A stretch of 39,414 bases of DNA from Basidioascus undulatus (taxonomy: Eukaryota): assembly GCA_000826855.1 (NCBI GenBank), contig JTLS01000357.1:1-39414 (forward strand). The letters are read 5' to 3'. The notes under the pieces were generated by a model, which was given only the letters and a program-made list of their open reading frames with translations, was not told where the DNA came from and searched no databases. The translations under genes were made by a program, and so were the position numbers. Positions 1 through 8,480 of this stretch are shown here, one piece after another; position 1 is the stretch's first letter; every line of letters begins with the position of its first letter.

Positions 1-37
1 AATCAGGGGGTTGCAGGTTCGATCCCTGCGTCGGTCA
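1..37 (+). tRNA. 3' half of tRNA-Arg(ACG): anticodon 3' stem, variable loop, T arm, acceptor 3' strand, discriminator A
   Basis: A2 (position 38), TCAGG 3-7, GGGTT 8-12, GCAGG-TTCGATC-CCTGC T arm 13-29 (B-box), GTCGGTC 30-36, A37. Upstream part lies outside the window. Confidence 0.9.
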
Positions 38-38
38 T

Positions 39-74
39 GGCCGGCTGGCTCAATGGTAGAGTATCTGACTACGA
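39..74 (+). tRNA. 5' half of tRNA-Arg(ACG) up to position 37, with no downstream 3' half
   Basis: GGCCGGC 39-45, TG, D arm GCTC-AATGGTA-GAGT 48-62 (A-box), TCTGA 64-68, CT-ACG-A 69-74. GGCCGGC pairs with GTCGGTC (30-36) and TCTGA pairs with TCAGG (3-7). Confidence 0.88.
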
Positions 75-354: not shown

Positions 355-1963
355 ATGCCCGATCGCGAGGCCCTCACGCTCGATCTGCACACACGCGTGT
401 ACTTCCCGGGAGACACAGTCTCCGGCGAGGTATTGCTCGATCTATCGCTCGCTCAGAGGGATCACATCCAGGAGGTGTTTGTTATTCTCATGGGTACTTT
501 ACGAATGTGCGTCCCAGTTTCCCTTGCGTGAGACCCCGACCTGCTTTGACCTGCTCTGCGCTGCCGTCAGACAAATCGGCCCACGCCGTACCGCCGCCCG
601 GCCACCGCCGGTGGGTCCTGGTCCGACCGTCGTAGCAAGGGACGACCAAAGTATAGTCCTATGCCATGCGCGTTCCTCGCTCTGGACGATCGGCTCGGCG
701 TACCCTCCCCCAGGCTCCCACCTCCTTCCTCTCCGCTTCGCCCTCGCGCTGCCGGCGCGTCCCGAGCCCCTTCCCAGCTTCGCCGCCCCCACGGGCGCGT
801 CGCAGGGCGGCTACGAGTGCGCCGTGCGGTACTGGCTCGCGGTCATCGGGCGCCGGCGCCACGCGGGAGCGAAGGTCAAGTTGCTATTTGAGGGGGATAG
901 GAAGATCGTCCGGCCGCTGCCGGTTGTGCGGAGAGATCGGGAGGGCGCCGAGATCAAGGCGCTTCTGGGTGCGAGTGGTGGGATTTGGGAGGGCGAGTGG
1001 GGGATGAGGAGCGAGAGTAAGAAGGTCAGGAGGGGTCTGTGGGGCGGGCATGGGATTGCGAGCGCCGAGGTGCGTTTTCGGTCTCGTTCTTCCGATCATA
1101 CAAAGAAAGCTGAATGTTTTTTTACTTTCCGCGAGACAGATCCGAATACCCAACATTTCCTCCTTCCCAATCGCCACGCGCATCCCCTACGCCATCCACG
1201 TCCGCACCTATTCCAAGCCTCTCACTTTACGCACGCCCTCCGCGCCACCAGCGCTCTTCCCCCCCGCACCAACAGCGCCCTCCTCCCTCGCGCTGTACCT
1301 GATCCAGCGCGTAAACCTGAGCGCTTACGGCATGCGGCACGAATTCGAGGACCGGCTCGGCGCGCTCGGCGCGCTGGGGCCCGCAGCCTCTACCGATGCC
1401 GAGGGCCACCAGGGGGATGACGATGACATGCGGATTGATGTAGGCGAGTGGACGTGGGATGAGGGCCCGTGTGAGAGGGGACGGGGGAGGTGGAGGAGAG
1501 ACGTGAGGTTCGAGGGCGCGTTCGTGCTCAAGTGCACGCCCACGTTCAGCCATGTCAACGTGGATGTGAAGGTGAGTGTGCATGCGAACAGGCAGCGAGA
1601 GGGATGGCTGACGTTGGAATGGATTTCTCAGCACTTCCTCGACCTCCACGTTCCCTTCCCCGGCGTTGGCAACTCGCTTGACGTCCGCGTCCCGCTGAAC
1701 ATCACCTCCGGCATGGCCGGCACCCCGCGGACGGGCGTAACTGCGCAGGAAGTCGAGGCATTGCCGTGGGTTCTTCACTTACGTCTCGTAAGAGTATGAA
1801 AGGCTAATAGTTGGGGCGAGCGAGCAGGTTGTACGAAGCGGCAGTCCCGCCCGGGCAGGTGCAGGTTCAGACGCCGTTAGCGGATGGGAGTGGAGACCCG
1901 CTTCGGGGACGGCGGGGTGGGCGGACAGAGGACGCGGTCCAGAGCGCTGTACAGGTCACGTAG
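355..1963 (+). CDS. Alpha-arrestin (arrestin-N/C-like adaptor), 4 exons: 355-506, 571-1069, 1140-1765, 1828-1963
   Basis: N-terminal VYFPGDTVSGEVLLDL, internal LPSF...VRYWL, CTPTF, and a C-terminal LPLY (L/PPxY) motif formed across intron 3. GT..AG introns keep the frame open to TAG at 1961-1963. Confidence 0.78.
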
Positions 1964-3100: not shown

Positions 3101-4599
3101 CGCCAGCTAACCCAACCCACAATTCGACCCCAGCAGTACCGGCCCTCAACGTGTCACACAACGCCCACAGAACCGCAATGACCCCGTCAGTCGGACTCTG
3201 AGTACGAGTTGAGCAGCGATCGAGAGGTTGAGGCGAGGACGACGTGCGTGGGCAGGTCTCGCTCGTGAATCCAGGTTTTGATGAGGGTTGCAGCTCAGGT
3301 GGAGCGTGTTCAGATTGGGCATGAGAGCATGAAAGATGTGGAGAGTTCGGACTGGCAGTGCCGCAGCGAGCTTCTGCGAAGAACAGATCGAGGATGGAGG
3401 AATAAGGATGACGAGGAAGGATGGAAGGGAAAATGGATTGCCCTCAACCTGCGGCTGGGCAACGTCGTTTAGTCATGGTAGTGACCGCGTGTGCTTGTGC
3501 TTGTATACCCACCTATATCAACAACCAGATTGAGATACCACAAAAGCCTGAGGATTGAAGACTTCTCCACCCGTATTCCCCAGCGTAAGGTTGCCAGAGA
3601 TCCGTGAGGTTCCCTCAAGACCCGAAAATCCAACTGTCAATTTTAAACTGTCCCTCTCAGAAAGCTTGCGTTCAGGTCAACTGTTCCTGAACCCCTTTAT
3701 TCGATTTATTGATGTATTTTAGATAGTAGGCTCCAAAGTACCAAGTCAACAAACAAGAAAGGTGAACTTTGGTTCCTTCCTTTGGGTCCGACTCGGACTG
3801 CGTTTCGAGCTGTCGTGTGCCTCGTGGGCTGCTGAGTAGTCTTGAAAGCTTGTAGAGCACAGAGATTGGTATTTGTTTCTTCCTACTGATCCAAGGACGT
3901 CGCATTCTCTTGCTCCCGAGAAGAGGGGTCTGTCTCGAACGAGGCCCCTGTACCTTGCCGCTATACAACTGCTCACGTTTTATCCCAGTTTCAGCGACAT
4001 CATGCCCTCTGCTCATTGAAAGCAAATAGCAGGGCCGCGAGAAATTTGAGCGATAAGTTAGTAAACAGTCGGTGCAACTTCAAAATCCAATAATATACGG
4101 AACTACAATCAGAAATGAGGGAAGATGGAACTATGATCGGTTGCCGTAAAGGATCGCTCGTCGCAGGTCATACAACATCATGTCTGTCCCATCGATGCCG
4201 CCTCAGTAGTTTGCACTTCTAGTAACCCACAGCATGTCAGCATCGAGTCGACCCGCACAGCAGCAGGGAGGTGGAATGCATTGTGTAAGAAGGGCAGGGG
4301 CATGGAATCCGTGAGGAACTCACCCGTCCAACATCCACTTTTCCTGGCCCAGCATGAGCGTACACCATTCGTTGATGCGCGGAGCGCATCGGCTTCGGCA
4401 CGCGACAGAGGCACGTCGTCCGGGACGGGATCGAGTATCGCAAAGCGCGCCGCCTAAAGTCAGAATAAGGCTGTCAGCAAGTTTTTTGAATATCCTGGGG
4501 ATAATGAGGCGAGCAGAGAGAATGAAGAGTGAATGCACGTTGTCCAACTGCCAGAGCCGGTTAAGGAAGAAGCCCGGTCGCTGCGTCGACTCTTTCGCA

Positions 4600-7154: not shown

Positions 7155-8480
<1,326 letters not shown>

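Follow-up and report, generated by a model that had tools for sequence, protein, structure and literature searches.

Only a small number of algae and one archaeon have so far been described as carrying circularly permuted tRNA genes, and these are mostly single genes. Those of type II, in which the halves are exchanged at the 37/38 junction, occur in Cyanidioschyzon merolae, Ostreococcus, Micromonas and the Bigelowiella natans nucleomorph (Soma 2014, PMC3978253), and Auxenochlorella is also among the algal cases (PMC12633428). The 2014 review lists 34 permuted genes from six algae and Thermofilum, with no Arg(ACG) in its available text, and it considers the inverted A and B boxes unsuited to TFIIIC, the genes being driven by upstream TATA-like elements (PMC3978253). 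Permutation is accordingly linked there to TFIIIC-independent transcription and relaxed splicing endonucleases, and the same source notes that yeast-like eukaryotes could in principle carry 37/38-permuted genes while most do not (PMC3978253). In their accessible portions, a 2026 review (PMC13578239), the Auxenochlorella preprint (PMC12633428) and a nucleomorph paper (PMC4494063) name no hosts other than algae and archaea. The initial annotation of the locus described below knew of no fungal permuted tRNA gene, and our literature search, in which coverage of subscription journals was thin, found none either.

The DNA analysed here, a stretch of 39,414 nucleotides from Basidioascus undulatus (the window), is the beginning of contig G000:C2278 and opens with a tRNA-Arg(ACG) whose halves stand in reversed order on the forward strand. 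Position 1 is the last base (-1) of a leader, as judged from an 80-base exact overlap with the end of contig C2199. It is followed by the 3' half (2-37; tRNA positions 38-73), with the 3' strand of the anticodon stem at 3-7, the B box at 16-26, the 3' strand of the acceptor stem at 30-36 and the discriminator A at 37. A one-base linker (T, position 38) separates discriminator A73 from G1, and the 5' half (39-74; tRNA positions 1-37) holds the internal A box at 46-56, the anticodon ACG at 71-73 and A37 at 74. The trailer (75-80), a C and five T, is likely an RNA polymerase III terminator. This layout, with its single intervening T and a 5' half ending at A37, agrees base by base with the initial annotation, as does the lack of a 3' half downstream of the 5' half, where the C and the T-run stand instead. 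ARAGORN finds no tRNA in the window in its native order, yet when the halves are put in normal order by script it calls tRNA-Arg(acg) with the full cloverleaf that had been predicted, including the conserved U8, A14, A15:U48, G18G19, U33 and U54U55C56. A pattern with the B box before the A box has a single match in the window and none in 200 shuffled versions. The sole good Rfam match in the window, YrlA (RF02553; 30.7 bits, the gathering score being 69), is below threshold and reflects the T-arm-before-D-arm order. In the alignment of the family introduced below, conservation stops at A37 and starts at A38, as expected of a 37/38 junction; CCA is not encoded in the permuted unit and the linker contains no T-run. 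In terms of sequence, the unit is a type II permuted tRNA gene.

With one upstream base visible in the window, the locus could also be an ordinary tRNA gene that extends beyond the window edge and is followed by a dead tandem half-copy, an option that the initial annotation had set beside permutation and made dependent on the sequence upstream. The last 80 bases of C2199 are identical to positions 1-80 of the window, and C2199 is the sole upstream-only contig end that matches both the window's -1 base and its linker base; judged from these matches, it is likely the left neighbour of the window contig. Its end carries the remaining leader of about 30 nucleotides (G000:C2199:22196-22229; L003/L143), with the hairpin, the A-box-like motif and the invariant T-5 and G-3 of the family, and no 11-mer of the 5' half occurs on the same strand in the 7.9 kb upstream. 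Nor was a 5' half found upstream of any of the 31 permuted copies whose upstream flank extends for 45 bases or more. Because no 5' half lies upstream in this likely neighbour or at any other such copy, the combination of a normal gene and a half duplicate is rejected, its probability being next to nil (it would require that C2199 lies elsewhere and that this copy alone departs from the rest), and the reading as a circularly permuted gene is supported.

The latter reading gains from the distribution of the unit over the genome assembly (32.1 Mb in 2992 contigs), which is fragmented and whose contigs break at tRNA genes. A DNA search with the unit gave at least 40 matches (the best 40 of 45 candidates were scored). 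A 27-base pattern from the 5' half, with up to three mismatches, matched 33 times, always in permuted units, and a 28-base pattern from the 3' half 40 times, 39 of them in permuted units and the remaining one in a conventional intron-containing tRNA-Arg(UCU); the reversed patterns used as controls matched nowhere. Altogether, the permuted unit was found at 45 places, counting a decayed relic. Since many copies are split over contig ends, genes were counted from their flanks: 32 places have at least ten upstream bases, 30 at least six downstream bases and 18 both, 31 upstream and 28 downstream flanks being distinct, so that the family comprises, by this count, about 30-32 genes and one relic. 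This size is in line with conventional families in the same genome, as 27 equal-scoring Rfam matches (all 13 retrieved were Lys(CUU)) and another 12 (all ten retrieved were Asn(GUU)) indicate. The only DNA common to six loci of 6-9 kb and the first 8 kb of the window is the unit itself, of 79-107 bases, and the copies are therefore not passengers of a larger repeat. The relic (G000:C24:4562-4640, L028) has lost the leader and the first bases of the 3' half, and its anticodon is now ACA. Two permuted copies (G000:C2628:1686-1778 and 4247-4326, L144) share a strand, 2.5 kb from each other, and differ in both linker and leader.

That many copies sit at contig ends, in an assembly that contains foreign-looking DNA, could be taken to mean that the units are assembly artefacts or belong to a contaminating alga or protist. 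The observations behind the second point are two kinds of mitochondrial-type contig, one AT-rich with nad4L and one that has a VAR1/rps3 match and a GC content of 55%, and a tRNA-Ala of bacterial type whose CCA is encoded (L049, C1377; L073, C1206; L131, C2990; L074, C952), which together suggest that foreign DNA is present. However, at 18 places both unique flanks lie inside one contig, which makes the misassembly considered by the initial annotation very unlikely, and the genes of the window contig are fungal. The best matches of its ribosomal P2 exon are fungal (up to 85% identity), it has DUF6699 and DUF4646 matches, and Basidiomycota is the commonest phylum in the nearest DUF6699 clusters (a lead only, with scores under 0.9). 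The sole named match of a HIG1 exon, among only three matches, is to Wallemia ichthyophaga (44%). On this evidence from its genes, the window contig is that of a basidiomycete fungus. Six other loci have a GC content of 54-58%, like the window (58%), and four of the six show Pfam matches of ordinary housekeeping type, leaving the artefact or contaminant explanation with a very slight probability. Among the neighbouring genes in the window, an arrestin-like gene lies downstream of the tRNA unit (355-1799, forward strand; Pfam Arrestin_N match weak and below the cut-off, E 0.0015), and genes for an S19-family ribosomal protein (7842-8402, reverse strand) and for P2 (9049-9522, forward strand) stand head to head. 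S19 and P2 domains are found in one protein of another fungus (P0111), hinting at a conserved neighbourhood.

How the copies differ from one another is informative about what they do. Over the 44 places that remain when the relic is left out, the 3' halves show four differences from the majority in 1536 bases (99.7% identical) and the 5' halves six in 1512 (99.6%), both halves being identical in 23 of 27 complete cores. At the linker base that separates them, four alleles occur (C at 20 places, A at 12, T at 11 and G at one), that is, 45% majority identity. Conservation of the leader declines from 87.5% at -8 to -1 to 67% at -20 to -9 and 49% at -33 to -21, reaching 37-40% farther upstream, and a run of four T begins no more than five bases after A37 in 29 of the 30 places with at least six downstream bases. 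Frozen halves around a variable linker point to selection on the tRNA, because neutral spread or gene conversion would not be expected to spare one base amid 72 frozen ones. The same pattern bears on the idea that the units form a SINE-like repeat that descends from a tRNA but does not act as one, and that the assembly lacks the real Arg(ACG) genes. Such a repeat would account for dispersed copies of a unit about as long as an RNA polymerase III transcript, for the relic and for three or four copies with changed halves, and the fragmentation of the assembly could explain the missing genes. Yet there are no target-site duplications (the longest word shared by the flanks averages 4.1 within and 4.5 between copies, n=15) and no A-rich tail, no conventional half was found genome-wide, and the uneven divergence, with halves at 99.7%, a four-allele linker and a leader at 50-90%, resembles neither neutral copies nor plain homogenisation. 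A SINE-like repeat thus keeps a slim chance.

Genome-wide pattern searches, two of which allowed introns of up to about 27 bases, found no conventional nuclear gene for Arg ACG or GCG; in the accompanying Rfam tRNA search of the genome, the best 64 of 1162 candidates were scored. The conventional ACG/NCG patterns did recover six conventional Arg(CCG) genes, all but one with introns, and an Arg(UCG) on a mitochondrial-type contig. The sole conventional Arg(ACG) found lies directly before nad4L in DNA of 21-30% GC and is mitochondrial. No tRNA was present in 33 ACG/GCG candidate regions among 99 pattern matches (control 99), nor in the eight non-family matches among the 39 of a further ACG/GCG pattern search (control 20). 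An Arg(GCG) that appeared among many relaxed-threshold, long-intron ARAGORN calls in 8-kb loci was dismissed as spurious, being gone at default settings. Across eight exon pieces of the window (1116 codons), 95 codons specify Arg, and 60 of those 95 are CGU or CGC. The permuted family is, from these searches, apparently the sole nuclear source of tRNA reading these two codons, a very diverged conventional gene being possible in an assembly that is fragmented and was searched by pattern. Permuted genes of other isotypes were sought with four B-box-before-A-box patterns, which left out type IV junctions and long linkers with some A-box forms, and these returned only the Arg family and three matches that hold no tRNA (C2055, C2641 and C1051). 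Several conventional genes deserve mention in their own right. The exons of the six tRNA-Arg(CCG) genes (L125-L130) are near-identical, one gene being intronless and five having unrelated introns of 9-11 bases, four of which open with three T and are thereby one step short of a terminator. A conventional tRNA-Pro(CGG) (G000:C1089, L141) has a 26-base intron holding a small hairpin, and two tRNA-Cys(GCA) genes (G000:C1903:2172-2562, L080) are inverted and convergent, about 250 bases apart.

The part of the leader next to the 3' half may supply one strand of a splice site. All 31 leaders have G-3 and T-5, -4 is always a pyrimidine and G-6 is present in 28 of the 31; three of the four central pairs of a BHB-like (hBH) motif are possible. 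In the available text on a human TSEN/pre-tRNA-Arg structure, C32 is paired with G(-3) and a three-base bulge follows (PMC10539383). Against this register, the corresponding 32:-3 anticodon-intron pair, read by eye, holds in only four of the six conventional Arg intron genes of this genome. The folding model gives this splice-competent register (C32:G-3) a probability of 0.0 in 17 of 17 precursors. For seven of the 17 it assigns a probability of 0.7 or more to a slipped register, in which G-3 pairs with C35, Y-4 with G36 and U-5 with A37; the 5' splice site is then hidden, and the invariant pyrimidine at -4 is better accommodated. If the predicted fold is right, a slip to the splice-competent register on enzyme binding would be needed. 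The hidden splice site, together with the sub-threshold YrlA match, could instead mean that the units are transcribed and selected for a product other than a religated tRNA, either a nicked two-piece molecule or a Y-RNA-like tRNA mimic. A break in the anticodon loop means that decoding requires ligation, and no other tRNA was found to read CGU/CGC, which is hard to square with a nicked product. G-3 is invariant at the anticodon-intron position, and the YrlA score is 30.7 where 69 is called for. The chance of a nicked or mimic product is slim at best, and a religated tRNA is the preferred outcome.

Farther upstream, the leader combines a hairpin with a motif resembling an A box. The stretch from -34 to -7 folds at a mean of -6.75 kcal/mol (z -1.64, n=31), against -1.41 kcal/mol (z 0.11, n=31) for a control stretch farther upstream; the sequence preceding conventional Lys (n=10) and Asn (n=8) genes gives about -1.0. 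In a hairpin spanning -31 to -8, 81% of cells are paired, with two-sided changes in seven of seven pairs, a pairing matched by none of 500 shuffles (20-46% in slid controls), the structure having been drawn from the very sequences on which it was tested. From the raw alignment of leaders, RNAalifold derived no consensus structure, and the whole precursor of the window locus folds at a z of only -1.45. When compared with the A-box consensus TRGYNNARNNG, as quoted in the accessible text of PMC7954030, 23 of 31 leaders match at seven or more of nine positions (25% of shuffles do), and the motif lies at -19 or -20 in 27 of the 31. The G and Y of TRGY are missing in most copies, and because motif and hairpin overlap, their signals are confounded with each other. 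The equivalent of T8 is nearly invariant in the leader alignment though it falls in the hairpin loop, and it stands 34 bp from G53, where an unpermuted gene has 44 bp between the two positions. As for an upstream TATA-like signal, which is typical but not universal among algal permuted genes, there is a weak A/T enrichment at -58 to -45 (at most 0.54 bits). The genome has a match to the TFIIIC B-block profile, in a long multi-exon gene, a profile that also matches four of 14 prokaryote controls. From these sequence signals, there is about an even chance that the A-box-like motif restores the A-before-B order for TFIIIC and that the hairpin replaces an intron stem that the too-short trailer cannot form. 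The fullest version, in which the tRNA for most arginine codons would come from the roughly 30 permuted genes only, the leader would serve, as a new answer to the promoter difficulty of permutation, both as a DNA substitute for the A box, one helical turn closer to the B box than is usual, and as an RNA hairpin with a splice strand, and RNase P would face a one-base loop, is tentative and falls a little short of even odds.

While gene layout, copy number, conservation pattern, leader hairpin and terminator are read directly from the DNA, the steps of transcription and processing are inferred from the algal pathway, as far as it is set out in the accessible text of PMC3978253, and from general fungal biochemistry. 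RNA polymerase III would start about 30 bases upstream of A38 and stop in the T-run, giving a precursor of about 110 nucleotides that consists of leader, 3' half, linker, 5' half and short trailer. This precursor would fold like an intron-containing pre-tRNA, with the intron open at the tip and the acceptor end closed. The splicing endonuclease (TSEN) would cut at -1/38, where C32 would pair with leader G-3 next to a three-base bulge, and at 37/+1. Fungi possess a Trl1-type tRNA ligase, and such an enzyme would join A37 to A38 to yield a circle of 73 nucleotides. RNase P would then cut before G1 and the one-base linker would be trimmed. By modelling, the G1:C72 pair next to so short a linker is probably frayed, which leaves a four-base loop. 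CCA addition and editing of A34 to inosine would complete the tRNA. An order in which RNase P acts first, with no circle, is equally possible. The splicing machinery is needed anyway, because conventional intron-containing tRNA genes are present in the genome. Taken together, we consider it probable (approximately 0.87, from sequence evidence) that about 30 dispersed, nuclear, type II (37/38) permuted tRNA-Arg(ACG, read as ICG) genes yield functional tRNA in this basidiomycete. As to their origin, one may speculate that an intron-containing gene was duplicated in tandem and lost its outer halves, which would leave both an upstream A box and a 3' splice strand in the leader, in keeping with what is observed. 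Alternatively, a circularised pre-tRNA could have been reverse transcribed, and in this respect the commonest linker base, C, is the first base of CCA.

If the proposal of functional permuted genes is correct, permutation extends to opisthokonts and is compatible with heavy expression, from a high-copy family serving a major codon pair. About 30 natural variants would show, like a mutagenesis experiment already carried out, what promoter and splice site require, and the genes are directly testable in yeast, where TFIIIC, TSEN, Trl1 and RNase P are well studied; the one-base acceptor loop poses the question of its removal. Fungal genomes that seemingly lack an anticodon may hide permuted genes missed by standard tRNA finders. 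An Arg-specific permuted pattern matched nothing in prokaryote genomes or viral contigs, and once in metagenome contigs, in a contig that is not fungal-looking (L051:1487-1564, Ga0213867_1007608). This is a separate permuted tRNA-Arg(ACG), with a 37/38 junction, a 6-base linker, a T-run after the 5' half and a leader complementary to the anticodon loop; its halves are identical to the fungal ones at 25 of 36 and 22 of 36 positions, and it belongs to an AT-rich eukaryote, with a weak lead to diatoms.

Among the described systems, the YrlA Y-RNA-like sRNA (RF02553) shares the order of T-arm and D-arm, but scores far under threshold, and the fungal unit has complete acceptor and anticodon arms. 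The tRNA-Tyr(GUA) of Thermofilum pendens has, like the fungal genes, a one-base intervening sequence and is, as these apparently are, the sole gene type for its anticodon, whereas it is archaeal, single-copy, permuted at the 59/60 junction (type IV), encodes CCA and has an extra intron, according to the available text of the review (PMC3978253). Canonical pre-tRNA bound to TSEN, as depicted in the accessible parts of PMC10539383 and PMC10485636, has C32 opposite a G at -3, a three-base 3' bulge and cuts at 37/38 in common with the proposed precursor, in which, however, leader and trailer are separate strands and not one intron, and the acceptor stem is closed by the linker. The nearest likeness is to the algal type II genes as these sources describe them, which equally have the 3' half before the 5' half, the 37/38 junction, no encoded CCA, a T-run after the 5' half and a leader able to pair with the anticodon loop. 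They differ in that the host here is a fungus with about 30 copies, where the review's table lists single genes and one pair, that the linker is one base long against 5-74 in the tabulated eukaryotes, and that a leader with a hairpin and an A-box-like motif stands where the algae have a TATA or AT-rich upstream promoter. In C. merolae no TFIIIC has been identified, according to the review's available text, whereas this fungus has a TFIIIC B-block match.
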